A stretch of 63,962 nt of DNA, the filler included, from Stramenopiles sp. TOSAG23-6 (taxonomy: Eukaryota), in assembly GCA_900128565.1 (NCBI GenBank). It is 4 parts of 4 records of this genome, joined end to end, with 100 filler letters (N's around TTAATTAATTAA, not from the genome) between each part and the next. Parts side by side here need not be neighbours in the genome. Positions count along the whole stretch, not along the records: positions 16,175 to 32,221 come from LT636099.1; positions 32,322 to 48,318 come from LT636100.1; positions 48,419 to 63,962 come from LT636111.1; 1 more part is not named here. The stretch is one strand, 5' to 3'. Numbering within the stretch: position 1 is the first letter of the stretch; the number at the start of each line of letters is the position of its first letter. Positions 96 to 63,195 of this stretch are shown here, in pieces. The notes below the pieces were generated by a model that was given only the letters and a program-made list of their open reading frames with translations, was not told the origin of the DNA and did no database searches. The translations under genes and the position numbers were made by a program.

Positions 96-136
<41 letters not shown>

Positions 137-16174: not shown

Positions 16175-16227
16175 GGTACAAAATTTCGTACGAAAAAAAT
16201 TCGAATTTGAAAAAAAATAAAACATAC

Positions 16228-17427
16228 ATATAACTGACGAGTGACAGCTTTAGCAGCTTTATCACATAAAGCAGGTGACCGACAACCTAGATAAAAATAA
16301 AGTGTTGCTACTTCCAATACGACACCAGAATTTCTACTCATTAGCAAAGGTAATATAGCACGAAGTAGCAGTTTGTGATCTTCATTCATTGAATATTCAA
16401 CATCACTTATTTTGTTTTTCAATTTTTTAGTTGTTTTTCGTTTTTCAGTAATCAAGTCTTCACCATCACTGCTCTCACCTGATTGAGCATAAAATTCATT
16501 CAATGAAATTGGTTTTTTATATGGTATATTATGTGATGTTAAAAGGGCTGATTGGGGGACGTTAGAATTGGATGGAACTGTTAAAGGTGGCGGCTCGAGA
16601 AAGTGCAGACGTGCATGTATTGTGAAAAAATATTTCAAAAAAAAAATTAAATTTGTTAGGTACGAAATTTCGTACGAAAAAAAAAATAAATTAGAAATTC
16701 ATATAAAACGTGCATAACACAACAAGATATTCATTAGCAACATTTGGCTCCATTCGTCAAGATCTGCAACTAGCTGGCAAAGTTTCCGAAAATTTTGATG
16801 CAATAAATCATAACGATCAGGACATACTTCTACAAAAGCTGCTACAGCAGAGCTCAAAACCATTGGCTCTTTATCAGCTAACAACGTCTTTATAGATTCT
16901 ATTAGAACGTCTTTTTGGGATTGATCAAGTTTGAAAAGTTTGGCCACTCCATGAGCAGCAGTTTTTCTCACATATGCGGACGCATCTGTAACACATTGTT
17001 TTACAGCAATTAATTGAATTTGTATAATTTCGCGGACACGAATAGAAGTTAAAACACGTAAAGACAAGGCCCGTATAAGTTGATTAGAGTCTTTAAGGTC
17101 TTTTTGGTATGAATTAATACCCAATAACGCCATCTCCCGACACTGAATAGTCGAGTCAGCATATTGAACAATATACATATATGCCAAACGTTTCAACTCA
17201 ATAGATTTTGCAGATACAGTTTTGACGACAGAAGAAAAGAATTGTGAAACATCACGACCTTTAGATATTTGAGCAAGCAACCACTTCATCCCTTCAATTT
17301 TTTCCGCATCGCCAGAAGCACCAGCCTTACTATCTAGAAGCTTTTTTACCAGCCCAAAATTGATAGTCTCTTCAAAGAAATGTGACTCGCCAATGATGGA
17401 TTTAACACGAGCTTGAGCAGATGTCAT
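16228..17427 (-). CDS. AP3B: AP-3 complex beta subunit, N-terminal part (3' truncated)
   Basis: Adaptin N motifs: GRDVSQFF..VVK, LKRLAYMY, IRALSLRVL, YVRKTAAH, DHKLLL...LLMSRNSGVV. Intron 16615-16713; next donor at 16227. Confidence 0.92.
16615..16713 (-). mobile_element. Introner-like intron, GC-AT, with an 8-nt direct repeat
   Basis: tat|GCACGT..ttcacaataCAT|gca cgt restores LLCY-ARLHF. atgcacgt occurs at both junctions. Confidence 0.8.
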
Positions 17428-17766
17428 TGTTCACCAAAAGAATTTTTTATTGTATTATTATATCTCTATTTTTGCCAATCTCACTTGTCTCGAAAAAAAG
17501 AAAATTTTGTCATGACTCATTTTTGTTGGCCACACGAATAATATTGATGTTTCAATTTGCCTCGGTACCGGGTAACGTATTTTATACAATGCAAATGCAA
17601 ACGGCCAGTCAGCTCACATTACCAAGACTCTACTCGGCAATACTTATACGTATTATCTAAGCAAGTATACATAGAGTACTTGTTGGTAGAATAACATCAT
17701 TACCCACGGGCTTAAAATAGACAGTGTTATTATTTTTAAAATAGATTGCTTCACTCGGAAAAAGTA

Positions 17767-18294
17767 ATGGAAGATTCATTGACAAAGGAAAATACCACCA
17801 AAGATTCAGTCACGGTGGCAGCAGCAGCAGAAGAGCAGCCGACATATGCAAACGCTATGGCTGAGAACTGGGCAAAGAAAGGTGCAAACTCTTATTACTA
17901 TGCTCATAAAAATACCAATATTGGTGCAGGTGCAGAGAATAGCTATGGTGGAGGACCAAAATTAATTCATTCTCAGCCAAAGCAAAGTGTGCAGTCTGAG
18001 AAGAAAGCTAAGCTCATTTCTGGCTACTCTTGGGCAGATGGAAAGAAAACTGTCAAGGTTTACATAGAAATAGAGGGACTTGACGATGTTGCCGAAGACA
18101 AAATCGAAATAAATACAACTTCGACAAGTTTTTCTTTGGCCATACATATGCCCGATACTGACTACACTCTTCAACTGCAAGAACTATATGATGAAATTAA
18201 GGATTGTGTTGTGAAGAAGAAGAACGGCAATCGTTTAGTTTTAGTATTATCAAAGGTAAAAGAGTTTACCTGGTATGAATTAAAGAAAAATTGA
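17767..18294 (+). CDS. CS (p23/SGT1/CacyBP-like) domain co-chaperone
   Basis: ISGYSWADGKKTVKVYI..L..LYDEI..LxK..W.EL motif, plus an N-terminal NSYYYAH. Confidence 0.8.
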   Translation: MEDSLTKENTTKDSVTVAAAAEEQPTYANAMAENWAKKGANSYYYAHKNTNIGAGAENSYGGGPKLIHSQPKQSVQSEKKAKLISGYSWADGKKTVKVYIEIEGLDDVAEDKIEINTTSTSFSLAIHMPDTDYTLQLQELYDEIKDCVVKKKNGNRLVLVLSKVKEFTWYELKKN

Positions 18295-21061: not shown

Positions 21062-23055
21062 ATGTCAAACAGGAAACGCAGTTCAAATAAAATGCTGCAT
21101 TCGAAATCGAATGAAACAAATATTCAGAAAACTACACCTAATGCGAGTAAGCGACGTCGTTTGACCTCAAAGAATGGAGAAAAACAAATACAAAGTGAAT
21201 CACCTAATCAGAAAAAAAACGTTCTTCGGTTTTCTTGGGAAGACGATTTCTATAATGATGTAACCCTAGTTTGTGGAGTTGAAGAAGATATATTGAGATG
21301 CTCACGAATCATGCTTGCAGGAGTTTCTCCTATATTTGATAGATTATTTCGTTCTGACTTCAAAGAGACAAGTTCTCAAGGAGAAGTTAGAGTTGTTGTG
21401 CCTCTTACTTCCGCTACAGTTGTGCGGTTTGCTCTTAATTTTATTTACGATCGTGTTATCGACAATAATCTTCTTGACCCAGATATGGTTAAATACATTG
21501 TTCCTCTTTATAATTTTTCTGAAATGTGGGAAATTCGAGGACTCTCAAAGTATATATGTTCCTTCTTTGATAAGGGTAAGAAAGTCAAATGGATCTCACA
21601 ATTTTTATCTGTTTTTCAAAGTGCGCGATTGAGTAATTTCGATAAACTTTGCGATGCAATAAATGGTATACTTCATGAAAATGCTTACATCGTATTTGTA
21701 CTGCGAGAGAAAAATATTGAAGTGGATCAAAAAATATTTGCATCAATATCACCAGAGGTGATGCTAGATTTAATGCACACAGTCTACAAGGGAAAAGATT
21801 CCTCTCGACCAATGCTTTGTGAGATTGATATTTTTCGCTCTATTATTCTTTGGACAAAGTCATGCATCAGTCAGTTAGAAAAAAAATGGGAAATTGACGA
21901 TAAAAACGACGAAAGTGACAAAGAAAATGAAAAGAAACTAAAAATTGAGGGGATTGGCACTACACAAATTGAGGGGAATGGCACCTCCCCGGTGATGAAT
22001 GTTCCAAGTGCCATCGCACTGAAAAAAACATCTCACACTTCGTCAAACATTTCAACGAAAAAGTTTGATCGAGCAGTGAAAATGCTGGAATTAATTGTAC
22101 GTTTTCTTAATCTAATCAATTTGATTTTTTTTTTTTGATGTCGTACGAAATTTCGTACCTAACGAATTTCGAATATAAAATATTTTTCACAGAACTTGAA
22201 CGTTCCAAATGGGTAATGTCGAATTTATCTTTGCAATGGTATCGCTTGGTACCTAATCTCATAAAGACAGAAATCGAACCTTGTAGACTTTGCTCGGATA
22301 ATTTATTAATAAAACTTTATCGCCAATCAAGTAGTATCACAGGCCATAGGAAGTTACAAATTTATCATCCAAAATCATATAAATCAACTCCGTATCAATC
22401 AAGTTCTACGGTTGCTAGGAATTTTAGGCGGGTTAGGGTTACAAATGGTGAAGAAGATGAAAGTGGTGGGGATCTCCCACGGCTTATTAGGGTTTTGAGT
22501 GAAGAAGATGAAAGTGAAGAAGATGAAAGTGAAGAAGATGAAAGTGAAGAAGAAGAAAGTGAAGAAGAAAGAAGTGAAGAAGAAGAAAGAAGTGAAGAAG
22601 AAAGTGAAGAAGACGTTAATACCTCTACTAAAACATCTAAAAGTTCAAAGAAAAAACTTGAAGTAAGAAAACATGAAACCTGTGTACCTACATCAACTGT
22701 ATCAGAGTATACATCCTACACAAAAAAAATATCTCCTGATGAAGATAAACTAGGTCTTACAACTTTTAAATCGGTCGATTTGAATGGTTTTGGAATATTA
22801 TTTCTAAAAGAGGATTCTGATGAATTAATTAAAAGGGGTGTTATGACTGCGTATGATGCAAAATCAGGAAGACATTTGGTTATATTTGAGTCAGGCCTTT
22901 CTTGTGGTTGGTATAATGTAGAGTTACTTATTAAGTGCAATACGAAGGAAGCTACTGTGTGTCTAACTCCAAATAGTATCAATACTATTTCAAAAAGTGT
23001 TGGTAAAACTATTAAAAAGTATATGAACATTATCAAGAGTGGGAGGGAAATGTGA
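21062..23055 (+). CDS. BTB/POZ(-BACK) domain protein, 2 exons
   Basis: DVTLVCG..CSRIMLAGVSPIFDRLF..F.E BTB motif. A family intron starts at 22097. Confidence 0.75.
22097..22197 (+). mobile_element. Introner-like intron, probable GT-TT
   Basis: att|GTACGT..ttcacagaaCTT|gaa. The nearby CAG (ending 22192) is out of phase with the donor. Confidence 0.55.
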
Positions 23056-23162: not shown

Positions 23163-24880
23163 TCATTTGGAACGCCATAAATGTAAAGAACGGTCATAGA
23201 AAGAACAAGTAACAATTAATGGTTCTTTATCCTTGATATAATCTTCATGTTGCACCCAGTCAGCTCCGTAAACCATAGATGAATGCTGATTATGCCATGA
23301 AATATTACTTAATTGTACATTTGATGCATTTGATTCAAAGCGTTGTTCATTGCGCCCAACATCCAACGTATATGCACCACCTCGCATACATGCTGCTAAT
23401 AACATATTTTTTGCATTTGGAGACGGATTCCATTTCAAACGCCAGATGCCGCCGCATACTTTATCATTTGGAGGGAACCATCTAGAGATTGGTCCTTTTT
23501 GTATGGCTCGAGTATCCCAGAGCCTAACACATCCGTCATATGAGCCACTTGCTAGAACATTAGGGTAATATGGATGACTTTGTATCGTCGTGACACCTGC
23601 AGAATGTTCAGATATTGGTGCTTTTGCTTGAGGAGTTAAAAAGTCACAACGAAGATCCCAAGCAAATAAGTTGGAGTCATATTTTGTGAAAAANTATTTT
23701 TTTTTNGTAAAAAAAAATCGTTAGGTACAAAATTTTCTATGAAAAAAAAATGAAAGGAATGATGAAAACATACATCAGCACCAGAGAAAAGCACATTTGG
23801 TGAATGTGCGTCATATGCTGCAATCCACACTTCGGCTTCAGCTCCACCAGGATACCTATGAGCAGACCAACGTTTTTCTAAAGATATATCTTCACCTGGT
23901 CTACCCACCCTATAGAGTGCTAACTTACCATCTGATTGACTGGTAGCTACTTGAGGAGATATCGTCGGAGTTATTCTTGTCGACCAATCGAGTGATAGTA
24001 CATGTGGTATTGTAGAAGACATTTCACTACATGGTGCTGCATCACCCTTTGCAATTTCGTGTAAACCAGAATTGTTCACATTATTAGGATGAGTGAACGA
24101 AAATATCTGAAAGCAACCATCAGCTGTTACTACACCTAAAACAGCTCCTCCAGATGACACATCACCATGAAAGTTGGTATCATTATCGTCATTATTATCA
24201 TTATCAAGAGACATATAAAGTGGCTGAGGACTCCACTTTAAGTCAAATACAGCTGATAAATCCACATGGCCTTGTTGACGAAGTTTTGTAGCATCACTTT
24301 CCTTAGAAGCAAGGGTACATGTAGTATAATCTTTTCTACCATCTATTTTATAAGTATATATTTGCCCACTTTTTATACCAGTGGACTTATCCAAGTGATA
24401 CGAACCGACGACAGCGTATTCATTATATGTGTCAATCGGACACCACTCAATTGAATCAGCTTCCAAAGAAGTATTTTGCTTTTGAATTGCATCGGTGCTA
24501 GTCAGGGAAAACTCCTCAAAATTTATACCAGAAACAGGAAAAGAAGCAAATGGATCACGTAATTTACCATGATCACGTGCAAGTGACTGTGCACGCTGCT
24601 CAATTACAACAGTATTATCCTGAACAAGTGACTGTTGCTCAACTACAAGTGACTGTTGCTTAACTACAACAGTAGGTTCGCTACAGCCTGGTACATCTAT
24701 TTCCTCTAAAAACAACTCCTTTGATCTTACATCGGCAGCAATGTTTTCAACAAAGGCTGCTTCACTTTCACTTTGTCCTTCTTCAGCATAATCCGACTCG
24801 TTACACTCACTCTCAGACGAATCAGAAAAGTCAGAACCAAATAAAGTTGTTGATACACCAAGAGGAATACACTTTTCCAT
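23163..24880 (-). CDS. DPH7: Diphthine methyl ester acylhydrolase (WD40), 2 exons
   Basis: ADSIEWCP, EVWIAAYD, SGAD|DSNLFAWDLR, SMVYGADW and TCSFYD motifs. Confidence 0.88.
23679..23773 (-). mobile_element. Introner-like intron, GT-AT
   Basis: gat|GTATGT..ttcacaaaaTAT|gac restores the conserved SGxDD. Confidence 0.85.
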
Positions 24881-48945: not shown

Positions 48946-49722
48946 TTAGTTACTGCATACAGTAACTGCAACCGGTTGCGCAGTTACAGGTGCTTGTACC
49001 ATTTGAGATGGAGCAGCTTTTAGAGGAACTTGCGTAACTTGGACAGTACTTGTCGGAAGCTGGGCACGATAGATTTTTACTTGATTGTTTACGGGACTCA
49101 TTTTGTGACCAAAATATAAACCAACGATATACAAAATATTTGTCGCCATCAAAAACCACATTCCCTTTGCCGGGTTTGGGAAATGTCGTTCAACACCTTG
49201 CGTGTCTGAAAATACTGCATAAAGATTATTAGCGCCATAAAAGAAAACACCATTGGCAACTATGCAACATATTAGTGCACATCCAACGAATGTCCGAGGA
49301 TTTCCTTTATTGTTTCTTGTTGAAAGAAACCCAAATACGCATGTAGTAGCAGCCAAAAGAACGCCCATAATGTGAAAAGCGATAAAAACACATCCGAGAT
49401 CTTTCATCAATTCAAAAGCGACCAATAAATCATTTTGTGCCCCTGCTTCGTATCCTCCTCGCTCGGCCACCACAATTTGTGATTTAAGTAGTTTAATCAT
49501 GTCTGAATATGTCCCTACACCTGCAAATTCCTTCGACATTTCTTTCCATCCCAATTTGGGCCATAATTCTCCTTTCGCATCTTTAAAACTACCACCGCCG
49601 ACCATTTCTTTTTGTGAGAGACCAATGATATGCAACAGAAGACCAATACTGACTGCAGCTACAGCAATCCGGCTGAATCCGGATGGAAGTTGAAAGCTGG
49701 TTTTACTCTTTGTATTCATCAT
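48946..49722 (-). CDS. Four-TM (claudin-like topology) membrane protein
   Basis: Four hydrophobic segments and a Pro/Gln/Val-rich tail. Confidence 0.6.
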   Translation of the reverse strand: MMNTKSKTSFQLPSGFSRIAVAAVSIGLLLHIIGLSQKEMVGGGSFKDAKGELWPKLGWKEMSKEFAGVGTYSDMIKLLKSQIVVAERGGYEAGAQNDLLVAFELMKDLGCVFIAFHIMGVLLAATTCVFGFLSTRNNKGNPRTFVGCALICCIVANGVFFYGANNLYAVFSDTQGVERHFPNPAKGMWFLMATNILYIVGLYFGHKMSPVNNQVKIYRAQLPTSTVQVTQVPLKAAPSQMVQAPVTAQPVAVTVCSN

Positions 49723-50044
49723 TTTTGCTTGTTTTGTTTTATGCGCAATAAGAATTTGCAAATGTCGCAGTGAGAAATATACCTTTGGTACACTGACTAC
49801 GTATGAAAGAAGCTCGGTGGAAACACGCGCTGAACTCCGCTGAACTAACTATATAATAAATTACCGGGTATCCCACATTCCGGTCAAAAGTGACAAGCCG
49901 TCAGAACGCTCAACACTGTCAACAGTGTACACAGAATAGAACAATTTTGTAGCACTTGTGTAATAAAAAGTGTAATTGCCCTGCTTGTCATACTGTGCAG
50001 TTTGTGTATTATTCATTCTTTTAGGTGTGTGACTTTTAAGGTTG

Positions 50045-50254
50045 ATGGAATCCGCAAATCACAGTCAGGCATCTAGAACAAACTTGCACAGTCTTGCGGT
50101 AGAGATCTCAGAACTTGAGTCTGCTGAAAAAGGCAGTGCGGTATATGTTAAGAGACATAACTTTGGTCCATTTTTTCTTTGTAAGACGGGTGAGCTCTCC
50201 AACATCATCTCAGCAAAAAAGGCTGCGCTAGATATTGCAAAAGCGTCCTGCTAG
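50045..50254 (+). CDS. Small prefoldin-like protein resembling ASDURF
   Basis: EISELESAEKGSAVYVKRHNFGPFFL resembles ASDURF ([23 protein letters not shown]). It ends 14 nt before the next ATG. Confidence 0.55.
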   Translation: MESANHSQASRTNLHSLAVEISELESAEKGSAVYVKRHNFGPFFLCKTGELSNIISAKKAALDIAKASC

Positions 50255-50268
50255 ATACTACTACATAT

Positions 50269-51699
50269 ATGAGTGACGAGTTGTTTGTCTCGGCATTGCG
50301 AAGCAACCGCTTGTTACAAGTGACTCTAAGCAAACAACTTTCTAATATAGCTCTCACCAAGGCAAGCATCACTCGGGAACTTGATAGTATCCTTGCCAAG
50401 CCCAAGTTGGCTAATAAATGTAATACGCTCATATCACCAATTAATCATGCACACTATACTTGTCAACCAAATGGGGCAGCCGTCGCAAGTTGGCTATTTT
50501 CTCGTCCTGGACAAAGAAATTCTTCGTCGTACTTCAATATGGGACCAAAGTGTCGTGGGCCACGTATGAATGAAGATACAGAACGTGTTGTATACTCTTT
50601 AAATCTTCCTCACCGATATTTAAGAGAAAAAACACACTTAATAAGAGTCCCACATATACACTTTCGTTCGGACTGGACTGCGGCAGAAAATAAAGGCCTC
50701 GAAGATGGCATTCGCGTACACAACAAAAATTGGACTATCGTGAAGAAGCCGATTGCTTCCAACCACTCTATAGATAATATTGATACATGTGCTAAGTACA
50801 AGGACTTAAGTCTTTCATCTAGTATTTTAAATGACAAGCTGTCGATGCTGGAAAAAAATCCTCCTTTCGCGTTGTCTAACAGAACAGTCGCTGATGACAT
50901 TGACTGGGAGTGGCTCGCACGGAGGTATGTTCCGTCACGATCATCAAAGGCATGTAGAATTCAGTGGCAAAAGCTAAACCCTTCTTTGTCAACTTTACAT
51001 TGGTCAAATACGGAAGATGTTCAACTGCTGATTTGTTCTAAAAAACGTGGATTTCGTGATTGGCTAAATATTGCAGAAGATTTGAAGGTTGCAACGAAAA
51101 ATACCAAAGTGCGACATCCTATTGACTGCTATCAACGATATCTCCATTTAATCAATCGTGACTCAAAGGATAAACGTGGAAAAAATGTAAAAAGTGTTAG
51201 CACTAATATTGTTGGGATGAAACGAAAGAGATGGTCTCAGCAGGAAGATGCTGCATTAAAGCGCGGCATGGCTTTATACGGTGCAAATGGTAATGAATCG
51301 AACTCAATGTTGAAAGAATTCGAGTTCACCCCTACAAACTGGCAGTTGGTAGCAGCTTCTCAGCCAGAGCTTAAAGACCGTGACGCTACCAGTTGTCTTC
51401 ATCACTGGATTTCGTGTATTGATCCAACTATAAAATTTGGACCTTGGACCACCGATGAATCAATTCGATTGCTAGTGACTGCACAGGCATATTATCCATC
51501 TTCTCCTCAAATAAATGTATGTGATACTCCTTCAGAAGATATTCCCCCGGTAACAGTAGATACAGGGGAATGTGTAAAGAAGGATGTCAAGGATTCTATA
51601 AAACTAAACTATAAAGCTATATCTCAATATATTAAAGGTAGATCAGCGGGTAAATGCCGTGCAAAGTATCTAAAATTAAGAAAGCAGTTGAAACAATAA
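50269..51699 (+). CDS. Multi-Myb repeat protein, SNAPC4 (snRNA-activating complex)-like
   Basis: WTAAE..L, DWEWLA..RS..CRIQW, WSNTED..L, RWSQQED.AL, GPWTTDE.IRL and GRS..KCR.KY motifs. Confidence 0.7.
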   Translation: MSDELFVSALRSNRLLQVTLSKQLSNIALTKASITRELDSILAKPKLANKCNTLISPINHAHYTCQPNGAAVASWLFSRPGQRNSSSYFNMGPKCRGPRMNEDTERVVYSLNLPHRYLREKTHLIRVPHIHFRSDWTAAENKGLEDGIRVHNKNWTIVKKPIASNHSIDNIDTCAKYKDLSLSSSILNDKLSMLEKNPPFALSNRTVADDIDWEWLARRYVPSRSSKACRIQWQKLNPSLSTLHWSNTEDVQLLICSKKRGFRDWLNIAEDLKVATKNTKVRHPIDCYQRYLHLINRDSKDKRGKNVKSVSTNIVGMKRKRWSQQEDAALKRGMALYGANGNESNSMLKEFEFTPTNWQLVAASQPELKDRDATSCLHHWISCIDPTIKFGPWTTDESIRLLVTAQAYYPSSPQINVCDTPSEDIPPVTVDTGECVKKDVKDSIKLNYKAISQYIKGRSAGKCRAKYLKLRKQLKQ

Positions 51700-51797
51700 A
51701 TCAAGGCTGAACTTCTTACATTGTATTTGTAATTATTAAATAAGGAAACATATACCATTTCAATTTATCTTAAAACATTCATGGCTTATTTTTGTTT

Positions 51798-54083
51798 TTA
51801 AATACTGAAATCTTTTGATGTGTCTACCCTTCGAATCCCAAATACATCTACTACTGGTTTTGCTATGGGTATGGTAATACCAACATTTTCTGGTGTTACT
51901 ACATTAGTTCGCAAATGATGCATTTGTTCATACGCCTCTGTTGCACTATCTGGTGTTATGACGTTGATTCTTGACTGACCAACAGTAGAAAATGTTTCTC
52001 TTCCATAATGTGAATTTAACGGACTCATTAACCCTATAGCTTCCATAGAGCTATCGTCCACGTCCATACTTTGAGTATTATCTACAACTTCATCACTAGA
52101 AGTACCACTTAACTGGCGTTTATACTGAATTTCTAACGAGCTACTTTCATTCATAGTTGCATTTTTTCCGGCTGAACTAGTAGCAACGTTTTTCTTCATC
52201 ACATCAATGCGAGTAGGAAACATATTTCTCATATAAGGATTTGGTGCTTCATAAGTGAAACCACCAAACTTCTCAATTGATGAAGACTGTGGAGCATTTT
52301 GCAATACCCCGGATTTTGTTTTCATTGGTACTGGAATCGAAGATGGGTCAAGAAGCTGTTGACTCGTTTCGATATAATCCTGTAAATTGTTACATCTTGT
52401 ACTATTATCAGGTGAGAGAATAGGAAGAGACGTAAACTCTTGATCAAATTGTGATGTATCAAATATATCTTTTGTAGGAGGCTTCCATGGAGCATCCACT
52501 GTCCCAGCTAATAAACCTTCCCAATCAATGGGAGAAAAAAATGAATGGTCTTTAATCTCACTAACGTCACTATTCTCACCACAACCTAATCGATTAGTTG
52601 GATCTTTCGCTAATAAACCCTGTAGTAAAAGCACCGCAGAACTAGAAAGGTAACTCGGAAAACGGAGAGATGCCTCTCGTATTTTATTGAACATTTCTTG
52701 TCTCTCTTGAGAATAAAATGGGGGTAACCCAGTTAACATTTCATACAAAAGTGCACCCATACTCCACCAATCAACTGCACAGCCATGGCCTGTTCGATTT
52801 AAGATTTCTGGGGCAAGATACTCTGGCGTTCCACAAAAAGAGTGAGCTCCAAAAAGATTATCGTTAACGCCTTCTTTAGAAAGGCCAAAATCAGCAAGTC
52901 GTATGTGACCGTCTTGTGTAAAGAGAATGTTTTCAGGTTTTAAATCACGATAAACAACACCCAAACTATGCAAATGTTCAAGAGCCAAAAGTATTTCTGC
53001 AGTATAAAAACGGGAACGTAGTTCACTGAAGCGTCCTTCTTGGCCTAGATGGAAAAAGAGCTCACCACCACCACAATAGTCCAACACAAAATACAACTTT
53101 GTTTTATCCTGAAATGCATATTTAAGACCTACGATAAATGGATGTTCAATTTTTTCGAGTACAGATCGTTCGGTTCGAGTATGCTCAACTTGATTACGTT
53201 TAATAATGGTTTTTTTTACTAAAATTTTCATGGCGAATATATCTTGTGTATCCTTCTTTCGCACTTGAATTACTTTACCAAAACTACCCTTTCCCACGAC
53301 TTTAATCAAATGGAAATCCTTTAAATCAACTCTCTCCTTTTCAGTTGATGTCGTATTATTTCCTGTGAATTCAGCTGAATTTGTCGGTATTTTCCCATTT
53401 GAAGTACTTGCTATAGTGTTTTTCTTTTTTTGTAATTGACAAATTGAACTATCAGAAACATTACGCATATTTTCAGTATTTCTGTCGACATTCATGCAAG
53501 TTGTTGCTTCACGGCTGTTTCTAACTAAAGTTGGAGTCAAACGATTTGCACTTGGTAACTTTGAAGCGTTTTCCTTTTTTATTGTTTTACATTCGTCTAT
53601 AAAAGTGGCATTTTTCAACTTTGCAATAATATTTTCAGCGGCATTAGCGAAATTAACTGATTTCGAATCAGGTGTACATACAACTCCACTAAGCGACTTT
53701 GGCATGACATTCTTGTTTGAAAGAATAAATGTCGTGAAAAACTCCGAATGGAGTACTGAAGGAACTGATACAATAAGTCTTAGCCATTCATGTAGCTCAT
53801 CGCGTCTTTGACGCAAATGATCAGGTCCATCTGACTTACCAATTAATGTCTTAAGAACATGCTTTGGAGGACAACTCGGCAAAGAAGGTTGTGTATTCTT
53901 AATATGTGTATACAGTGAATAAAACTGAGAATACCGGCGGTAAACAACCCAGCCATTACTAGTGTTATCTTGGGCGTGCACGATATAGACAACATGTCTA
54001 TTTGAATTTCCAACTTCACCATAACCAACAATGTTTAAAGATATACCTGTCACTAATTTACTATGGTGTAAAGAGTGAAACAT
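51798..54083 (-). CDS. PX-domain AGC Ser/Thr kinase (SGK3/PKB-like)
   Basis: PX (VYRRYSQF..L); GKGSFGKV, YRDLKPEN, DFGLSK, FCGTPEYLAPE; hydrophobic motif FGGFTY. Confidence 0.93.
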   Translation of the reverse strand: MFHSLHHSKLVTGISLNIVGYGEVGNSNRHVVYIVHAQDNTSNGWVVYRRYSQFYSLYTHIKNTQPSLPSCPPKHVLKTLIGKSDGPDHLRQRRDELHEWLRLIVSVPSVLHSEFFTTFILSNKNVMPKSLSGVVCTPDSKSVNFANAAENIIAKLKNATFIDECKTIKKENASKLPSANRLTPTLVRNSREATTCMNVDRNTENMRNVSDSSICQLQKKKNTIASTSNGKIPTNSAEFTGNNTTSTEKERVDLKDFHLIKVVGKGSFGKVIQVRKKDTQDIFAMKILVKKTIIKRNQVEHTRTERSVLEKIEHPFIVGLKYAFQDKTKLYFVLDYCGGGELFFHLGQEGRFSELRSRFYTAEILLALEHLHSLGVVYRDLKPENILFTQDGHIRLADFGLSKEGVNDNLFGAHSFCGTPEYLAPEILNRTGHGCAVDWWSMGALLYEMLTGLPPFYSQERQEMFNKIREASLRFPSYLSSSAVLLLQGLLAKDPTNRLGCGENSDVSEIKDHSFFSPIDWEGLLAGTVDAPWKPPTKDIFDTSQFDQEFTSLPILSPDNSTRCNNLQDYIETSQQLLDPSSIPVPMKTKSGVLQNAPQSSSIEKFGGFTYEAPNPYMRNMFPTRIDVMKKNVATSSAGKNATMNESSSLEIQYKRQLSGTSSDEVVDNTQSMDVDDSSMEAIGLMSPLNSHYGRETFSTVGQSRINVITPDSATEAYEQMHHLRTNVVTPENVGITIPIAKPVVDVFGIRRVDTSKDFSI

Positions 54084-54847
54084 TATTGTCTAAACGTGGA
54101 AGAACTTTCAATTTTTTTCTATTTCTAGGTTGCTTGTATTTTTATTATACTTCTCCACCAAAATCGAAACACACAACGAAATTATGATATACAACAACAA
54201 CAGCAACGATGTTACTTCTTCAGCATGAAGCGATTGTGAAAATGCCGGTTTGCTTGTACAGTGTCTATTTTTAGCTTCACTTGGGACACAATCAGGAGTA
54301 CACAGTGTTGTCTAAATATGTCTAAGTTCGAGAGAGGAACGCGAAGTCGAAAAAGAATTTTTCTAAACTGTGCCAAAGCCCTAACCCTAACTTTCGCTTT
54401 CACTGCAGAATTTTCTTTGTAGAAAATTACTTTTTCTTCTTTTTCTACTACCAAAAAAATGGTACGAACAACACGATCACTCATTCTTGAAAGATCTCTC
54501 TCTATCCGAGCGAGATTATCTAAAATTTTAATCACATTTGATAAAAACAACCTTGCTGAGCAAACATTTTAGCTGTTACGTTCAATTCCGCGAGCGATTT
54601 AATGTTTTGACACTTATTTAAGCAACATTTACATCTGTGGATACGAAAAGTTGCGTTATTTTCAGTAGACAAGCTTGCCTATTTTTCGGAAAAGGTGTTA
54701 TTCGGAAAAGGTGTTACTTTGATTGTACTAGTTCCCCATGTTCACTTTGTAACTTTTATTCAACTTTTATAACTTTGAAATTTAAAAAAATATGTTGAAT
54801 AGGTAATAATCTCAACATATTCATTGAAAGAAAGAAGTTTAGTCACG

Positions 54848-55798
54848 ATGGCTACGGAAGGGTTTCCATGTAAACTGGGGTTGAAAAATGAAACACTATT
54901 GAACAGCCACGGCATGATCAACGCCGAAACAGAAATTTTGAGGGGTTCTAGGAGTTCTATAGTTCATAGTGAACCAAACGCTCTTGATGATTTTGGAAAA
55001 GTACTTGATTCAATACGAGGAAAAGAGGTGGTCGTATTTTTGGATTATGATGGGACACTTGCTCCAATTGTTGATAACCCAGACAAAGCATATATGACAG
55101 ACAAAATGAGAAAAACTGTTCAAACTGTAGCTTCAAAATTTACGACTGCTATTGTCACTGGAAGAGCAAAGGAGAAAGTTAAAAAGTTTGTAAATTTAGC
55201 AGGTATCGTATATGCGGGCAGTCATGGATTTGAAATTGAATGCCCAGATAATTTAGAATTAATTTACGCAAACGATTTTCTACCAATGCTGAAACAAGTC
55301 TTCTCGCAGTTAGAAGACTTAGTCAGTACAATCGAGGGTGCTACACTAGAAAACAACGTTTATTCTATTTCTGTTCATTATCGTTGTATATCTATTGAAA
55401 AATTTGATGATGTCAAAAGAATTGTGGACAACGTGGCTAAAAGGTTTCCTTTGCTAGAAATTAAGTCAGGTAAAAAGGTTTTTGAATTTCGGCCACGTGT
55501 CAAGTGGGGTAAAGGTAGGGCTGTAAAATGGTTACTCACGAAATTTGGTTTATCTAATCGAGCTGATATTATTCCCATATTCATTGGTGATGATGTGACT
55601 GATGAAGACGCCTTTAATTATCTCCTAGAACTCCCTTCAGAAGAGGAGCAAAATATAACCAAAGGTATAGGCATTATAGTGCGCGATGCAGAATCTTCAG
55701 ATAGAAAGACTATGGCTACTTATTCGTTACGTTCTACTGAAGAGGTAAGAAAGTTCCTGGATAAGTTGAATGCATCAAGTGTATCACGCCGTGTATAA
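54848..55798 (+). CDS. Trehalose-6-phosphate phosphatase (HAD)
   Basis: FLDYDGTLAPIV, YAGSHG, SVHYR, GKKVFEFRP and IGDDVTDEDAF motifs. Confidence 0.93.
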   Translation: MATEGFPCKLGLKNETLLNSHGMINAETEILRGSRSSIVHSEPNALDDFGKVLDSIRGKEVVVFLDYDGTLAPIVDNPDKAYMTDKMRKTVQTVASKFTTAIVTGRAKEKVKKFVNLAGIVYAGSHGFEIECPDNLELIYANDFLPMLKQVFSQLEDLVSTIEGATLENNVYSISVHYRCISIEKFDDVKRIVDNVAKRFPLLEIKSGKKVFEFRPRVKWGKGRAVKWLLTKFGLSNRADIIPIFIGDDVTDEDAFNYLLELPSEEEQNITKGIGIIVRDAESSDRKTMATYSLRSTEEVRKFLDKLNASSVSRRV

Positions 55799-55911
55799 TA
55801 CTTGGCCTTGACATGAGATATGTAAGAAGAAAGCAAGTTTTATAAAATAAAAAGTGTGAATGATTAGAAAATATTTCGAGGAACATATTATTGAGTTATT
55901 TATTATAAGCC

Positions 55912-56583
55912 TTATGGACGTACACCAGCTTTCATAATGCCCGGTTTGCCCATATATTGACGATAGTCGCGTCTTTGGCAAACACCAACAAATCCCTTTG
56001 AGGAAGTACCATGATTACTCGTAACCTTTTTACCCTTTGTGGTCCCAAGTGCGCTAAATCCCATAAGTTTTGCCATTTGCTCTTCTTCAGTTAATTCTTC
56101 AACTTTTACCTCTTCTATCTTCTGTGCAGTTATTTCGGCAGTCTGTTCATTGTGTTGGTTGTCATTGTTCTTCCTTCTACCAGGCTTACTGTCGTATCTT
56201 TCTCTGCTTCTGTTTCTGGTGTATCGGTCAGCACTCTCACGATGACGTCCGTTGTATCGGCCGCCGTTACGACTATCGTGGTCTCGCACATCGAATCCAC
56301 CTTCGGGGGATTTTCTTCCACTTCTGCTTCTGCTTCGACTGCGACTTCTGTTTCTACTTCGGCTTCTACGTCTGTTTCTACTTGTGCTTCTACTTCGGAA
56401 GCGGCCTCTACTTCGATTTCGGCTGCTACTTCTACTTCTTTGTCTGCTTTTGGTCCGATTATCACTTTCATCTATTCTTCTACGGGATATCCGATCACGC
56501 TTTGGATAATCATGTCTACTGGATTCACTCCCACGTTGTCTTTCACGTTCTAAATCAAGATTGGAACCACGACGACTCGACAT
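55912..56583 (-). CDS. SNRNP27: U4/U6.U5 tri-snRNP 27-kDa protein
   Basis: RS domain plus M..LMGF....TTKGK.V..N....R.YRQYM. Confidence 0.88.
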   Translation of the reverse strand: MSSRRGSNLDLERERQRGSESSRHDYPKRDRISRRRIDESDNRTKSRQRSRSSSRNRSRGRFRSRSTSRNRRRSRSRNRSRSRSRSRSGRKSPEGGFDVRDHDSRNGGRYNGRHRESADRYTRNRSRERYDSKPGRRKNNDNQHNEQTAEITAQKIEEVKVEELTEEEQMAKLMGFSALGTTKGKKVTSNHGTSSKGFVGVCQRRDYRQYMGKPGIMKAGVRP

Positions 56584-56851
56584 AACGCGAACTCAAAACC
56601 TTCACTTGATTTCTTTTTGAAACGAAATCTATAAGTCTCCCTGTGAGCTCCAAAATTTCAATAATATATTGTAAACAATTTTAGTATTAGAGATGTCAAC
56701 TACGTACCTGCTTGAGAGACCACGTAGTAAAATATAGGGTCTGATAATTATTAATCTAATATAGGTCAAACCGGCAAAGTTGTATTCTGGGACTTGGTGA
56801 TTGTTTCCAAATGCGGAAGCGGAACGAACAACAAGCGAATTTTGACCGAAG

Positions 56852-56879
56852 CTAACCCTAACCCTAACCCTAACCCTAA
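56852..56879 (+). repeat. Interstitial telomeric (CCCTAA)4 / telo-box in a divergent promoter
   Basis: ctaaccctaaccctaaccctaaccctaa. Confidence 0.8.
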
Positions 56880-57222
56880 GCCATTGGAACGATTTTGACT
56901 TTTTTACACGCGATGTGTATATCGCGATTTTGAGATTATTCGTCTTCGGCATATTATTTTATTAGGTATTAGGTATATTATATAGCCGTACTATCTCTAG
57001 CTAGGGCACCATCGACAACAACATTAGTAGATTCTTGCCTTCTCTTTACGTCTTCGAAGATTAACAATATATATGTACTGCTATCGGTGATGAAATTGTT
57101 ATCTTCTATGAATCGCAAGGCAACTATTGTAAATGTAGATATTCTCGCTACAAACATCAGGAACTCCTAAAACCCTCTCGACTGTTCTTTTAGACGCTTT
57201 TTGCGGTAGAACCTTATACAGA

Positions 57223-59804
57223 ATGTCCGGCTCAGTGGAAAGAGAAATATTGTTTAATTATCCTTCTTCTACACTTACGAAATGGATTGCACAACCTGGT
57301 ATTACTGTGAGCAAAGGGGATACACTCGCGCGCTGCCGCGGAAGTAGTAAGCGTTACACTGTTGTGGCACCTTGCCGAGGCGAAATAGTATCACACAGTG
57401 TAACTGAGGGTGCTTCACTAACACGAGGTTGCCGTGTCGCTATCTTCAAGGAGAAACAGTGTCTTCATACAATTTGTTACAGCGGTCTGTGTGCTACTTG
57501 TGGCGAGACGATGCCTAAAAAGGGAAACAGTGGAAGACTTTTGTCTTCCAAACAAACTTTGAGTGGCATAGGTTCTCAATCAAGTAGAAAAGGCACGATA
57601 GTCAATACTGGTGCTGGTCATGAACTTCTCGTGATGGGGTCGGAGGCAGCACATCTTCAAAGGGAAGCCGAAGCTCGTTTGATAAAAAAACGGCAACTTG
57701 TAGGTTTTCAAAATTGAATTTTTTACCTATTTTTTTTTTGTAGTAAATTTTGTACCTAACAAAGTTTTTACTTTAAAAAAATCACAATACATGCTTTGAT
57801 CTTAGATTTAGATAGCACAATAATAGAAAGTACAGTTGATACGTCAGCAATGGAGTTATTAGCTCCTCAACATGCTACATCATGGTTAAAAGCAGGCTTA
57901 GAACCCATAAAAATTTTACGTGTGGGTGGTATGCCCTACTATCTAAAATTGCGTCCAGGTGTTCGCGAGTTTCTTAATTTAGCCTCTAAAAAATTTGAAT
58001 TACACATTTACACACATGGCAATAGGCAGTATGCTGAAGAAATTCGAAAAGTTCTTGATCCTAAATGTACATTATTTAATGAACGTATTATTGCTCGCGA
58101 TGACGTCACTCAAGGGACAACACTTGGGAAAGATAGAGCTGATAAACCAGTATATCATAAAACACTTGAAAGACTTTTTCCACTTGATGATTCAATGGCT
58201 ATTATAATTGATGATCGTGCAGATGTTTGGCGGTTTGCTGAGAATGTCATTCAAGTTCTTCCATATCATTTCTTCAATTGTCTTCGTAGAATGAAAAACC
58301 TTTTTGATTCTCAAAAGAATGTTCAACCTAAAAATATTTCAAAAACAAATAGCTCAATTCCATTGGCGTCATATGCACCTCAACCAAAAAATATAGATAC
58401 TTCTAAACATCTCAAAAATGATAGTACTGTACTAGATGAACTTACACGAGATAAACATGTATGTTTGTTTATTTATATCATTTCAATTCATTTTTTTTTC
58501 GTAGTTAATTTTGTACCTAACGAAACAAAATCAAATTTTTGAAATATTTTCATACAAAACATGGTGATTTGGATCAATTGGAAAATTTGCTTGTAGTCAT
58601 TGAAAAAATACATAGTGAGTTTTATAGTGGATTTGATGAGAAAAAACATCAAGCAAAAAAAAATAGTAGAATAGAAGAATATAATATTGTAGGTACTAGG
58701 GAACTCACTCAACGACATCGTTGTACTGTTCTCCGTGGTGTACATATATCATTTAGTGGTGTATTTGAACTTTCTGATAATTTCCCTGAAAATCAAAAGA
58801 TTTGGAAAAATTGTGTTTCACTTGGAGCAAAGTGTAGTAAATCACTCACTGCACATACGACGCATCTGATTGCAAAACGATCACGAACAGCGAAAATTCA
58901 AAAGGCAACACAAATGCCTGGTGTATGGGTGGTCAATCCAAAATGGGCAGATGCAGCGTATTGGTGTTTGTCTTTTCCTGATGAGTCGAAATTTTTACTT
59001 CCTGGTATGGAAAGAATTTTACCAAAAGGAGGCATTACTGCTGCAAAAAAAATTCTTTGTGAAAGACAGTTAATGCTGAATGCATCTATAGCTAACGAGA
59101 CAAAAAATAGTTTTGATCGAAAGAGACGCCATAATGCAGATAATACACATGAGAAAGTCAAGCGAAGGCGTAATGTATCGTTTCATCAGGTTAATACTGT
59201 AAATTCTAAAAGTGGAAAAGTTGAACAAAAATATTGTGATGATGATGATGATTACCGATATAGTGATGAAGATGAAGGATTTGGGTATTGGGTCGACAAG
59301 AGTTCTAAAAAATGTGTACAACCTAATGCTAAAAACATTAATAATCAAGTTACAAATTCGAAATTTTCTAGTCGTTCAAACCATTTGGAAATAGAAGCTA
59401 ATGATAGTCTTGATTCTTGGACAAAAGATCAGTTACAACTATTCAAACCAAACACTCACACAGATAAGGATAATAATGATTTTCAACATGGTGATGGGAT
59501 AAATAGTAATAATAACATTTGTAGTGAAGAGGATAGTGATGACGATATTAGTGATGACGATGCTGATTTAGAAGCTGGTTTGTTCGAAACAGATAATGTA
59601 AGTGAATGTAAAGAAAAAGTTCCACTTGAAAATTCGTTACATCCCTCCTTAATACAGCCAATGACTCAAGCGAAACAGCGTATCAGTGCCGAAGAAATCT
59701 TGAAAAAGAGCTCTGAAAAATTCCCAGGTGGGCAAAAAATGATCCTTTCTAACAGTAAATCAACACCTATGCCTGATCCTACGAGTGATGATGATTTTTT
59801 TTAA
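57223..59804 (+). CDS. CTDP1: RNA Pol II CTD phosphatase FCP1, 3 exons
   Basis: Biotinyl-like N-domain, C.H....GLCA.CG, LILDLDSTI, KLRPG, IIDDR.DVW and BRCT. Introns 57700-57792 and 58459-58562. Confidence 0.92.
57700..57792 (+). mobile_element. Introner-like intron, GT-AT
   Basis: ctt|GTAGGT..atcacaataCAT|gct restores KRQL-ALILDLD. Confidence 0.85.
58459..58562 (+). mobile_element. Introner-like intron, GT-AT
   Basis: cat|GTATGT..tacaaaaCAT|ggt; aaacatg repeat at both junctions. Confidence 0.8.
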
Positions 59805-60293
59805 TTGGCCTAGATTAAAATATATGATAATATTAGAGGTGATTTCGAAATCAAATATTTTTTTTTTTTAGTTGAAATATTTTAAAGCGACGTAGACTTC
59901 AATAAAAAGGAATGTACACATTCATCTTTGTTTATTGGTTTTATTAGGTTCAATATTTTGAAGAATATTTCTCTTATTTGGATGATTCTTGGAACAAAGA
60001 TTACTTTCCCATTTATCATTGTTATTTGTTAGAAATATAATGGATACTGTTTTTTTCTTGAAATGTTGAATCTTGTTTGAAGAACCCATTATTTACTTAC
60101 CGTACTTATTAATTACTGTAGGAATTTCGAAAATTATTATAGCTCAATAAAAGCGTCTTAGTTAAAAGTGGTTCAAATGCACTCACTCATGATAAAGAGA
60201 TAATGGAAAATTGAGAATATTTTATTTTTCATATAAATTCAATTCATTGTATTTGATTCAATCAATTTATTCAATTTTTTTCATCAGTTTACA

Positions 60294-60920
60294 CTAAAGT
60301 TTTTTGTGATACTCTTTTTTGTGTGTCTTCCAATGTGATTTTTGACACTTCTTTGAACAATAACACACACATTTACACCCAGTACAAACGAATAATTTAC
60401 TATTATTGTCAACTTTACCACAATTTACACATTCTGAGTTGTCGTGTTCTATTATCATTTTTTTTAGTTTCTCTTCTGTTGTATCTGTTATCTGCTTTTT
60501 TGCTTTCTTGATCCACTTTGCTCCTAATTTATAATTTTTAGTGACACCCAGACCATCCAAATAAAATATACCAAGAGTAAGCTGTGCTGCCATGTGCCCT
60601 TGTTTTGCAGCTTTTGTATGCCATTCGATAGCAGTTTTATAACATTGAGTGACACCATAGCCATTCGCATAAAATGCACCAAGACTAAGCTGTGCTTCCA
60701 TGTGGCCTTGATTTGCAGCTTTTGTAAACCATTCAGCAGCAGTTTTATAACATTTATTGACACCCTCACCATTAAAATAACATTCACCAAGACTATGCTG
60801 TGCGTCCATATTGCCTTGTTTTGCAGCTTTTGTAAACCATTTTACAGCAGTTTTATAACATTTACTGACACCATCACCATTCTTCATATACGATAATCCA
60901 CGTAAATATTGTGCGTCCAT
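60294..60920 (-). CDS. Sel1-like repeats + MYND zinc finger (5' end apparently degenerate)
   Basis: AQ.SLG..Y.NG.GV..CYKTA..WFTKAA.QG repeats; C..C...C..C...YCS..CQ..HW..HK. Confidence 0.85.
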   Translation of the reverse strand: MDAQYLRGLSYMKNGDGVSKCYKTAVKWFTKAAKQGNMDAQHSLGECYFNGEGVNKCYKTAAEWFTKAANQGHMEAQLSLGAFYANGYGVTQCYKTAIEWHTKAAKQGHMAAQLTLGIFYLDGLGVTKNYKLGAKWIKKAKKQITDTTEEKLKKMIIEHDNSECVNCGKVDNNSKLFVCTGCKCVCYCSKKCQKSHWKTHKKEYHKKL

Positions 60921-61384
60921 TTTTTGTGGCCTTGATCTGCGGCTTTTGTATGTACTCGAATAAGAAGTGTTAGTCTTCTTAATTGAATGAATTATAGCAG
61001 GGTAGAGCGTAACGCGTTCTGATTAGTTTCTGAGTCAGTTAGATTAAAAAGAATGAAATTAATTCTCTTGAATTCTATTCTACGATTGGATGAAAGTGAA
61101 CACCACAAGATACGAGAGAAACTCTCATCTGTTTTCCTTGATTGAGCGACACGTTATAATTATCTTAATTCATCCTTCGATCGGAATTTTTTTTATTTCG
61201 TGCGAAATTTCAAATTGGATAAAATTTCGTGTTTTTTTTGATGAAAATAATATAAGAGTCAAAAAAACGCACTTGAGCAATGAAAAAAATTCATCTCTCA
61301 CCTTAGTTTTTAATTATCATTAGATTACTTAGTCTATATGACATTGTGTATTGTGAAGCGCCTGGGATGTGTCCTAAAAAGACA

Positions 61385-63195
61385 ATGAAGTTGCTATTCA
61401 TAGTACTCTTTGGTTTATCTGTCTCATCAGCCGAAGAATTATATTGTGGTGGAAAAAATTGCTATGAAATTTTGGGTGTCGAAGCAACAGCAACAACTCA
61501 GGAGATTAAAAGAGCTTACCGTAAACTATCGTTAGTGTGGCATCCTGATAAAAATCCAGGTGATGTCAAAGCTACTGAAAAGTTTTTGTTAATAAGTAGT
61601 GCAAACGAAGTCCTTTCGGATGATGAATCTCGACAAGACTATGATTATTATCTCAAACATCCTGACTCTGTGTTATACAACAACTTCCGTTATCACTATA
61701 GATTTGCCAAGAAAACAGATTTGCGTGTAGTTATTGCTGTATTTATTGTATTTGTTTCAGTTTTACAGTATATACTTTCAGTGCAAGACCGTGCAAGATT
61801 AATTCGCGTATTTCGTGGAAGTGACATTATTGTGCATCGAGCTCGTGTTCGCGCAGCAGAATTGATTCAGTCGAATAAAGAGAAGAAATGTAATGCAAGT
61901 AATAATTCAAATAATTTCCTTACGGAAGCTTTAGATCAATTAACAAATGAAGCTGATAATGCTGGGACCTTTCCAAATCCTTCATGGCGAAATGTCCTGA
62001 TTCCTCAACTTTTTTTGTTACCCATTACAATATACAATTATTTTCAAAATCTTAAAAAAAAAGATTTGGAGGTTGAAAAAGCCAAAGAATTTGATTTACA
62101 CATGCAAAAGGTAGAAGATAACGTACGCAGAGAACGCCAAAACTTTCAAAAACAAAAAATGACAAAACGCAGATTGAAGCATGAGCAGATTCGGCTCTCT
62201 AAACTTGAAAAAGAAAAACAAGCTGAAAGTCTCAGAATAAAAGTATGTTTTATTTTTTTTTTCACAAAAAAATCGAATTTATTTTCGTACGAAATTTTGT
62301 ACCTAACGATTTTTTTTGAAATATTTTTCCAAAATAAAAGCTGCAGAAAGAGAAATTCTCGAAAATGAAAGTCGGAAACAAATACGTGCTGCCAAGGTAA
62401 AGGCTATTCGTGTATGGCGGAAACGAATGATTATCCTAACAAGTAACCTTAACCCTATACAGAATGATATAAAAAATATCTCCGAAGATGACATTAATTT
62501 TCTAGCTAACCGAGTAGAAGTAAATATATTACAGAATATTTCAACATTGTCCCAACTACAAGCATTATTAGTTACTGAAAAACAATCCAAGGTGAAAGAA
62601 GATGCGGAGCTTCTTAGTCTTCGTATAGAAAGAGAAAAAAATGTAAAGGAAAAATTAAAAATACAAAAAATGCAAATGTCTCAATGGTCTGAGATGGAAA
62701 CAACATGTACGTTTTATTTTTTTTCAATTTCGAATTTATTTTTTTTTAATACGAAATTTTGTACCTAACAAAAAAAAATAAATTTTTTAAATATTTTTTT
62801 TCAATACATGTTTAGCCAAAGCAGTAGCTAGGTTTCCAGGAGGTACAGTGAAACGCTGGAGTAAAATTACGGATTACGTTAATAAACATTGTTCCTGTGA
62901 TAAAACTATAAAACAGTGTATGTTAAAATATAAGAAAAAATGGTCTGAACCCTCTCCTCCACAACGAGGAGTTCTCCAGCCTAATTCACTATTACCCAGT
63001 ACTAGCACCTGGTCAGTAGAGCAACAAAAACAATTAGAAATGGCTTTAAAGTTAGTAAAGAAAGGCAATAAAGTTTCTTGGGAAAATATAGCAGAAAACG
63101 TTGATGGCAAAAGTATCCAAGAATGTAAAAAACGTGTCAAGACAATTCGAAACAGAGTTATCGCTTCAAAGAGCCAACAGAGTGGGAACAAATAA
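61385..63195 (+). CDS. DnaJ protein with signal peptide, TM helix and two C-terminal SANT/Myb domains, 3 exons
   Basis: LYCG..NCYEILG, HPDKN, WSE..LAKA..RFPGGT..RW and WS.EQQK.LE.AL motifs. Introns 62243-62339 and 62707-62809. Confidence 0.88.
62243..62339 (+). mobile_element. Introner-like intron, probable GT-AA
   Basis: ata aaa|GTATGT..tccaaaataAAA|gct; aataaaag repeat at both junctions. Nearby AGs give frameshifts. Confidence 0.65.
62707..62809 (+). mobile_element. Introner-like intron, GT-AT
   Basis: aca t|GTACGT..tcaataCAT|gt tta; acatgt repeat at both junctions. Confidence 0.85.

Follow-up and report, generated by a model that had tools for sequence, protein, structure and literature searches.

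A stretch of 63,962 nucleotides from Stramenopiles sp. TOSAG23-6 (GenBank assembly GCA_900128565.1; four records joined end to end with filler), referred to here as the window, was analyzed for a family of short, related introns, most of which do not end in AG. All copies lie within genes, the length and register of their excision are set by the reading frames, and their flanks carry repeats specific to each locus. For bursts of intron gain, introners are the source with the best support, and an initial annotation of this DNA had proposed that these introns are introners derived from a transposon.

The window is AT-rich (G+C 25–37%) and dense with eukaryotic genes. Protein genes were found for AP-3 beta, ankyrin/SAM, BTB, WD40, MACPF, steroid 5-alpha-reductase, DEAD-box helicase and GidA/MTO1, as well as for DUF4116, PX-kinase, trehalose-phosphatase, SNRNP27, FCP1/BRCT, Sel1/MYND and DnaJ. 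The label GSMAST32 on the best match of an AP-3 beta exon hints that the host is a MAST-3-like marine stramenopile. Positions 1–8037 are the exact reverse complement of 8038–16074, with 0 mismatches and no spacer, and form a perfect 16,074-bp palindrome. This inverted duplication looks like an amplification or assembly chimera rather than biology. The half at 8038–16074 was left out of unique counts, and its seven family copies were considered duplicates, not independent observations.

Related introns in unrelated genes

A 24-nt core was matched 33 times in the window at three or fewer mismatches, versus 0 times in 100 shuffled sequences. Twelve of these matches lie inside the palindrome, which leaves 27 unique matches. 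Sixteen short copies were aligned using MAFFT and are similar over their full length; a profile built from this alignment identified ∼35 unique intron loci, gap-cut halves included. The earlier count of more than 30 related introns sharing the core was thereby borne out. Copies are present in the AP-3 beta, BTB, WD40, steroid reductase, DEAD-box helicase, DHHC and GidA/MTO1 genes and also in the DUF4116, phosphatase, FCP1, DnaJ and ankyrin protein genes, every one in the sense orientation of its gene. Many sequence-related introns in unrelated genes are what distinguishes introners, and the ∼35 loci are of this kind. The family seems to make up essentially all introns of the window.

Introns were delimited by reading frame, with the 5′ cut set before the G of GTAYGT, and 28 complete unique introns were tabulated; three copies starting with ATATGT were treated separately. 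A length of ∼95–115 nt had been given for the family initially. This holds for the bulk of the copies (21 of 28 measure 93–118 nt), but the full range is 93–251 nt. Family members and associated features are listed below by window position and strand, where “exon end” denotes the last two bases of the upstream exon.

1..210, +: two-core family intron at the start of the window
4013..4128, −: family intron with 5′ end ATATGT and 3′ end GCAT; exon end AT
6030..6141, +: family intron GT...AG; exon end TT
6422..6532, +: family intron with 5′ end ATATGT and 3′ end ACAT; exon end AC (no repeat)
6744..6848, +: family intron GT...AT with a junction repeat of at least 9 nt
6945..7121, +: family intron GT...AT with the 8-nt junction repeat ACATGTAT
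7223..7335, +: family intron GT...AT; exon end CC, repeat absent
8038..16074, no strand: mirror image of 1–8037
16175..16231, −: 5′ half of a family copy at a scaffold gap
16615..16713, −: family intron GC...AT in the AP-3 beta gene with the 8-nt repeat ATGCACGT
22097..22197, +: family intron GT...TT; exon end TT
23679..23773, −: family intron GT...AT in the WD40 gene
30370..30522, +: family intron GT...AT, internally duplicated
30959..31053, −: family intron GT...TT; exon end TT
31243..31357, −: family intron GT...AT (TTTAT); exon end TT
31486..31586, −: family intron GT...AT; exon end TC, repeat absent
32166..32221, −: 3′ half of a family copy at a scaffold gap
35059..35359, +: 5′ half and 3′ half of family copies flanking the gap 35142–35276
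35525..35640, +: family intron without GT (start ATGTTTT) and with end GTAT; exon end AT
36039..36212, +: divergent member GT...AT; exon end TT
38141..38391, +: long member GT...AG with degenerate tandem cores
38477..38846, +: 5′ half and 3′ half of family copies flanking the gap 38550–38715, with the exon between them absent
38944..39043, +: family intron GT...AT (ATATAT) in the GidA/MTO1-like gene
39158..39342, +: two-core family intron GT...AT
39517..39693, +: divergent member GT...AG
39775..39955, +: collapsed pair of family introns, exon lost in assembly (GIDA 365–391 absent)
40427..40586, +: family intron GT...AT with two cores
40918..41035, +: family intron GT...AG (ATACAG)
43512..43612, +: family intron GTTTGT...ACAT in the DUF4116 gene
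47462..47566, +: weakly related intron GT...AG
47792..47885, +: family intron GT...AT; exon end GT (partial repeat)
48088..48478, +: family intron broken by the gap 48319–48418; exon phases fit an ATATAT end; exon end TT
57700..57792, +: family intron GTAGGT...ACAT in the FCP1-like gene; exon end TT
58459..58562, +: family intron GT...AT with a 7-nt repeat
62243..62339, +: family intron GT...AA with the 8-nt repeat AATAAAAG
62707..62809, +: family intron GT...AT with the 6-nt repeat ACATGT
63909..63962, −: 3′ half of a copy, at the end of the window

Copies are composed of four parts: their own 5′ splice site GTAYGTTTT, a T-rich spacer, the 24-nt core, which ends in a branch-point-like GTACCTAAC box 33–48 nt from the 3′ end, and a 3′ box GAAATATTTTTCMMAATAC. 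Introns 36039, 39517 and 47462 are divergent and have only the end boxes in common with the family. Several introns contain an internal tandem duplication of the core or the 3′ box (39158–39342, 40427–40586, 30370–30522 and 1–210). In the intron at 30370–30522, two identical ...CACAATACAT ends occur at a distance of 62 nt, the first of them being out of frame.

Repeated introns seem to have caused assembly collapses and gaps. All five scaffold gaps adjoin family copies, and both window ends also fall inside copies. Exons of the GidA/MTO1-like gene were lost in assembly: GIDA profile positions 365–391 are absent where two family introns look fused, and a second stretch is absent across the gap 38550–38715. 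Collapsed introns, gaps and a perfect 16-kb palindrome are what would be found if the family itself were an artefact of single-cell amplification or assembly, and the 2-nt direct repeats and short inverted ends resemble the boundaries of the internal eliminated sequences of ciliates, which are removed at the DNA level. Either origin is scarcely credible, however, given that the same introns occupy the same loci in contigs from an independent seawater DNA run (X3), those at 57700, 58459 and 62707 among them. Moreover, the elements are strand-specific and carry a 5′ splice site, a branch box and T tracts, and a further copy, the one locus recovered by a core scan of metagenome contigs, lies on an unrelated contig (L001). 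No match to the core (0) was obtained in collections of prokaryote genomes and viruses.

Intron ends and the register of excision

The first two bases of the 28 complete unique introns are GT in 24, AT in three and GC in one; the last two are AT in 20, AG in five, TT in two and AA in one. Thus, 23 of 28 introns have no AG acceptor. The 3′ cut that keeps the reading frame falls on the 3′ end as aligned across the family, an agreement with a chance of 1 in 3 for each intron. Downstream exons start with G in 21 of 28 cases.

Pfam profiles run without gaps across the exons joined at four introns. The GIDA profile is continuous across 39158–39342 (GT...AT), with position 285 followed by 286–287, and exons meet at GIDA 337/338 across 39517–39693 (GT...AG), at Helicase_C 90/91 across 31243–31357 (GT...AT) and at Steroid_dh 127/128 across 30370–30522 (GT...AT). 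The register is therefore fixed for three GT...AT introns and one GT...AG intron, and the reading frames, together with profile continuity at these four introns, demand precise removal. It had been proposed that removing the element plus one copy of its flanking repeat restores the coding sequence exactly; this appears to hold, as judged from the restored frame and, in three cases, from Pfam continuity. Eight of the non-AG introns bypass an AG located between the branch-like box and the boundary. In 22097–22197, an AG lies 5 nt upstream of the boundary and is out of frame.

An alignment of the exon adjoining 16615–16713 to a related protein (P0002, 61% identity) stops exactly at the last exon residue. 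The P0002 open reading frame (ORF) runs past this site without a stop codon and seems to enter an intron elsewhere; P0002 may be a transcript.

If both cuts were placed two bases upstream, the introns would be of the AT...AC type (ATGTAYGT...ATAC). The 14 copies with AT at both the exon end and the intron end give the same mRNA in either register, a first-base A with a last-base C is a known compatible pair, and AT...AC introns are a class known to be handled by the spliceosome. AT-AC introns, whether U12-type or U2-type, also resemble the family in having a non-AG acceptor. However, the AG-ending members are cut as GT...AG, with their AG in the same alignment column as the T of ...ACAT, and shifting 39517–39693 by two bases yields a stop codon and breaks GIDA continuity. 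The AT...AC register was rejected for AG-ending members on these grounds, and the shared register of the AG members favors the GT...AT reading over AT...AC for the family. Copies with a non-AT exon end would, when shifted, start with CC, TT, TC or GT. Note also that U12-type introns have an ATATCC or GTATCC donor and a TCCTTAAC branch site 10–15 nt from the acceptor, whereas the donor here is GTAYGTTTT and the GTACCTAAC box is 33–48 nt away. We regard the shifted register as quite improbable. A further suggestion of the initial annotation was that AG-ending copies were canonized later; the common alignment register (39517) is in keeping with this, as a fit rather than a proof.

One spliceosome component is encoded within the window. 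An intron-less SNRNP27 gene, for a protein of the U4/U6.U5 tri-snRNP, lies at 55912–56592 (−) and has an RS-rich N-terminus.

Flank repeats and the mode of spread

Upstream exons end in AT at 16 of 28 introns, versus a background frequency of 0.090 in ORFs (binomial p = 1.8e-10); the last exon base is T in 23, C in three, A in two and G in none. An earlier tally had given 15 AT ends, likewise with no G. Repeats were assessed by comparing 5′/3′ pairings within loci to random pairings, following the logic of an introner survey as set out in the excerpts used (10.1101/2022.06.06.494994). In 16 of the 23 non-AG introns, the upstream exon and the intron end in the same two bases, compared to 11.8±1.2 after permutation (P = 0.0016). 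Junction repeats add up to 88 nt versus 58.5±4.5, a total reached in 0 of 20,000 permutations, and an excess is also seen within the AT/AT subset (70 versus 52.6, P = 1e-4). This excess continues beyond 2 nt, with repeat lengths varying from 0 to at least 9 nt.

The only three introns that end in neither AT nor AG (TT, TT and AA) follow exons that end in TT, TT and AA, and these pairs, named in the initial annotation at 22097, 30959–31053 and 62243, are present and frame-compatible. Because the paired ends are identical and not complementary, they argue against selection for a terminal helix. At 6744, 16713, 58459 and 62243, bases of one junction that depart from the consensus of the family agree with the exon at the opposite junction. 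All five of the longer repeats quoted initially (16615, 6945, 6744, 62243 and 62707) were found, and the counter-examples at 6422, 7223 and 47792 are real; four more were added (31357, 31586, 57700 and 36039). Flank repeats no commoner than chance had been named as grounds for giving up the proposal, and they do exceed random pairings. The further idea that the acceptor derives from the target site agrees with the copying of exon ends by the last two intron bases. The flank pattern is probably a signature of target duplication or of microhomology at insertion, and the locus specificity of the repeats supports insertion with a short target duplication.

We propose, with a probability of roughly 0.6, that these are an introner-like family of short (∼95–185 nt) spliceosomal introns with mostly non-AG acceptors, spread by insertion with target duplication. 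The element would carry its own donor, branch-like box and 3′ box and would insert into coding sequence, preferably at ...AT/G... sites. The excised unit would begin at the G of GTAYGT, end two bases past ATAC and include one copy of the repeat; most copies would hence be GT...AT, a few would be GT...TT or GT...AA, and five would have AG at the same position. Excision of the element with one repeat copy would restore the coding sequence. The cutter would presumably be the spliceosome, acting at a non-AG acceptor placed by position, and spread would occur by DNA insertion with a short duplication, which the flank statistics make the best-supported mode.

An extension of this proposal, which we consider possible rather than probable, is that the spliceosome of this lineage no longer needs AG and makes a fixed cut two bases after ATAC, ∼40 nt past the GTACCTAAC branch site. 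Such independence would follow if one element, with its 3′ boundary in the duplicated target dinucleotide, gave rise to nearly all introns. If true, GT...AT would be the majority intron class of the whole genome, and the proteomes of the lineage would be systematically wrong. An element could then multiply across a genome even if it neither supplied nor met a canonical acceptor, and a spliceosome could choose its 3′ site by position.

Several observations weigh against insertion of a mobile element or against its removal by splicing. Of 24 non-AG copies, seven have an absent or partial 2-nt repeat, the repeats differ in length where a classical target-site duplication has a fixed one, and informative non-AT pairs number only three. 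Pairwise identity among the 16 aligned copies has a median of 0.64 (range 0.46–0.80), below the high similarity that marks a recent burst; such a burst is not supported, and the copies would be old or fast-evolving. Conservation is concentrated in three boxes, a pattern also expected from selection on splicing signals. The short terminal inverted repeat noted initially is present as GTAY...RTAC but comprises only 4 nt, or 6 with the flanking AT, and its 5′ half also serves as the splice donor. Copies are predicted to fold weakly (z −2.8 to +1.2), with the ends paired in 10 of 18 minimum-energy folds. No antisense copy was detected when both strands of the window were searched using the family profile; opposite-strand matches were short echoes of the quasi-palindromic core. 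The sole trace of the family outside introns is a 25-nt core-like fragment at 42176–42200, between two divergent genes. A distribution in both orientations and outside genes was thus not found. Among 30 window ORFs of at least 150 amino acids that were scanned for domains, no transposase, integrase or reverse transcriptase was detected. Finally, contigs of three metatranscriptome runs (X6, X7 and X8) and one seawater DNA run (X3) were aligned on 48419–63962, where four introns are located. No RNA contig from the three runs, in which exon cover was thin, bridges any junction of the four, so splicing and exact cut positions were not observed. Of the transposon-derived introner first proposed, the multi-copy family and the flank repeats stand; the short inverted repeat and the lack of antisense copies and of a transposase in the window leave the transposon itself unproven.

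Two readings were tried and rejected in this connection. An end-joining hairpin as the main constraint disagrees with the weak folds and with the three non-AT pairs, which keep identity and not complementarity. The minus strand of 42176–42342 was considered as a 5′-UTR intron and is unsupported: it has no 3′ box, and an unrelated GC-rich inverted repeat (∼42232–42268), which adjoins the core-like fragment, lies in between. The strand of that fragment is ambiguous, the core being nearly palindromic.

The strict sense-and-genic distribution makes RNA-mediated spread the main rival. Reverse splicing or retroposition has been proposed for fungal introner-like elements, and excised intron RNA could have spread here in the same way, with no DNA transposase and with AT/G as a preferred proto-splice site. 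Such a route would account for copies that are all sense and genic, with none antisense and only one short intergenic core fragment, and for the lack of a convincing inverted repeat and of a transposase in the window. The insertion context is also splice-site-like, given the 21 of 28 downstream exons starting with G and the AT exon ends found for AG-ending members too. However, exact reverse splicing would not give locus-specific identity of exon and intron ends (TT/TT, TT/TT and AA/AA, and repeats of 6–9 nt). Moreover, Micromonas introners were likewise sense-only and genic before they were shown to be DNA elements (10.1101/2022.06.06.494994, in part). RNA-mediated spread is therefore a doubtful, though not negligible, explanation.

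Vertical inheritance was also weighed. Ordinary introns with long, lineage-specific splicing signals and a divergent spliceosome, and with no mobile element, would be conserved in three boxes and have spacers that vary in length and sequence; even the most divergent members (36039 and 47462) keep their end boxes, and the modest median identity agrees with such an origin. The spacers between donor and core, however, share non-homopolymer strings of at least 12 nt in 16 of 300 pairs, versus a mean of 1.27 (maximum 4) in shuffled sequences, the longest being 22 nt and common to introns of the AP-3 beta and steroid-reductase genes. Because these subfamily-specific strings occur in unrelated genes, they indicate copying and not only constraint from splicing signals. 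Locus-specific flank repeats, internal tandem duplications of the core and the passage of the P0002 ORF through the 16615–16713 site without a stop codon also stand against inheritance, which we judge unlikely. From the spacer strings, the tandem duplications of the core and the related copies found outside the window, we conclude that the copies arose by copying and that their boxes were kept afterwards by selection for splicing.

Fungal introner-like elements resemble the proposed introner-like family in being sense-only and genic, with no clear inverted repeat and an unexplained mode of spread; unlike it, they are canonical (GT...AG) and have no flank repeats. Other systems were compared as described in excerpts of the papers cited here.

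Introners of Micromonas pusilla, Aureococcus anophagefferens and other, mostly marine eukaryotes comprise hundreds to thousands of related short introns in unrelated genes (10.1101/2022.06.06.494994, PMC12130899). Like these, the present family has short flank repeats and a marine protist host; its coding sequences would likewise be restored by removal of the element plus one repeat, with one splice boundary in or beside the duplicated target. Unlike these, which have GY...AG ends, it lacks AG in 23 of 28 introns; it is also far more diverged (46–80% identity), with an inverted repeat of 4–6 nt and a variable flank repeat, and it seems to make up nearly all introns of the window and not a subset. 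A 2025 survey considered introner families with unfamiliar splice sites suspect and discarded them when transcript support was lacking (PMC12130899). The non-canonical introner elements of Amoebophrya have inverted repeats of 8–20 nt, complementary ends, direct repeats of 3–5 nt and no conserved end dinucleotides (PMC7789003). Similarities to these include a majority of non-canonical introns, repeated introns with direct repeats over the exon/intron boundary, no transposase partner found and failure of standard gene prediction. Direct repeats are present here too, but the inverted repeat reaches only 4–6 nt, and pairing between the ends is weak. Conservation is strong at GTAYGT and at the branch-like box, 5′ GT is kept in 24 of 28 introns, and the oddity is confined to the acceptor. 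Amoebophrya is, furthermore, an alveolate and not a stramenopile.

No literature was found on introners or unusual introns in MAST stramenopiles, and the passages of MAST single-cell genomics papers available to us, supplements being outside this scope, did not discuss intron sequences or splice sites.

Other samples, public gene models and neighboring genes

Most joints listed from the contig alignment were cross-alignments between family copies. One contig of poly(A) RNA begins 4 nt upstream of the exon start predicted at 62810, preceded by two unmatched letters, whereas X3 DNA contigs extend 24–60 nt into family introns at the same loci as in the window. This contrast is a hint of splicing and no more. 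Run X3 placed 7,363 contigs on 15.5 kb, and its depth was 265–11,659 in bins with family introns versus 3–9 in most other bins; this depth shows thousands of related pieces and is not a copy number. In the RNA libraries, summed depth over family introns was ∼1,000–2,900 in most such bins of X7 and X8 and 3–37 in the poly(A) run X6. Intron abundance in these libraries could reflect unspliced RNA, stable excised introns or DNA carry-over. RNA depth ratios are confounded by other copies and organisms and were not used as evidence. At the 57700 junction, no candidate of 49–158 amino acids was found among transcript-derived proteins, and at gathering score no RNA family and no snRNA was found in the window using Rfam.

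Public gene models were affected by the family. The EukProt entry that best matches the AP-3 beta exon represents this gene itself, incorrectly spliced: this model (P0001) drops 12 residues after intron 16615–16713 and ends inside the next intron. A word search with intron peptides returned only four proteins. A profile of translated introns returned ten public-library ORFs that read through such introns, and these ten representatives are too few for a large-scale flank test. Of nine that were looked up, seven are other gene models with the same assembly label, GSMAST32. The affected set (P0001 and P0121–P0130) also includes two ENA contigs, and its models either translate through family introns or force GT...AG and delete real codons. 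Given gene models corrupted in this way, gene counts and protein sets of this uncultured lineage are unreliable.

Low-complexity coding insertions were observed in the GidA/MTO1-like gene at 40060–40290 and 40700–40760, with repeated NEENKQ units and an NPNPNN run that resembles the telomere repeat at the DNA level. Short telomere-type CCCTAA runs also lie between genes, at 56857–56880 and at ∼2078, 25133, 41198 and 54380, and on contig L001 at ∼2250–2330 (minus-strand view). They often sit directly upstream of gene starts and may be a promoter or boundary motif. An ORF at 41373–41981 (−) has a signal-peptide-like start and a Desulfoferrodoxin (superoxide reductase) domain; the domain is mostly prokaryotic, and the gene may have been acquired by transfer.

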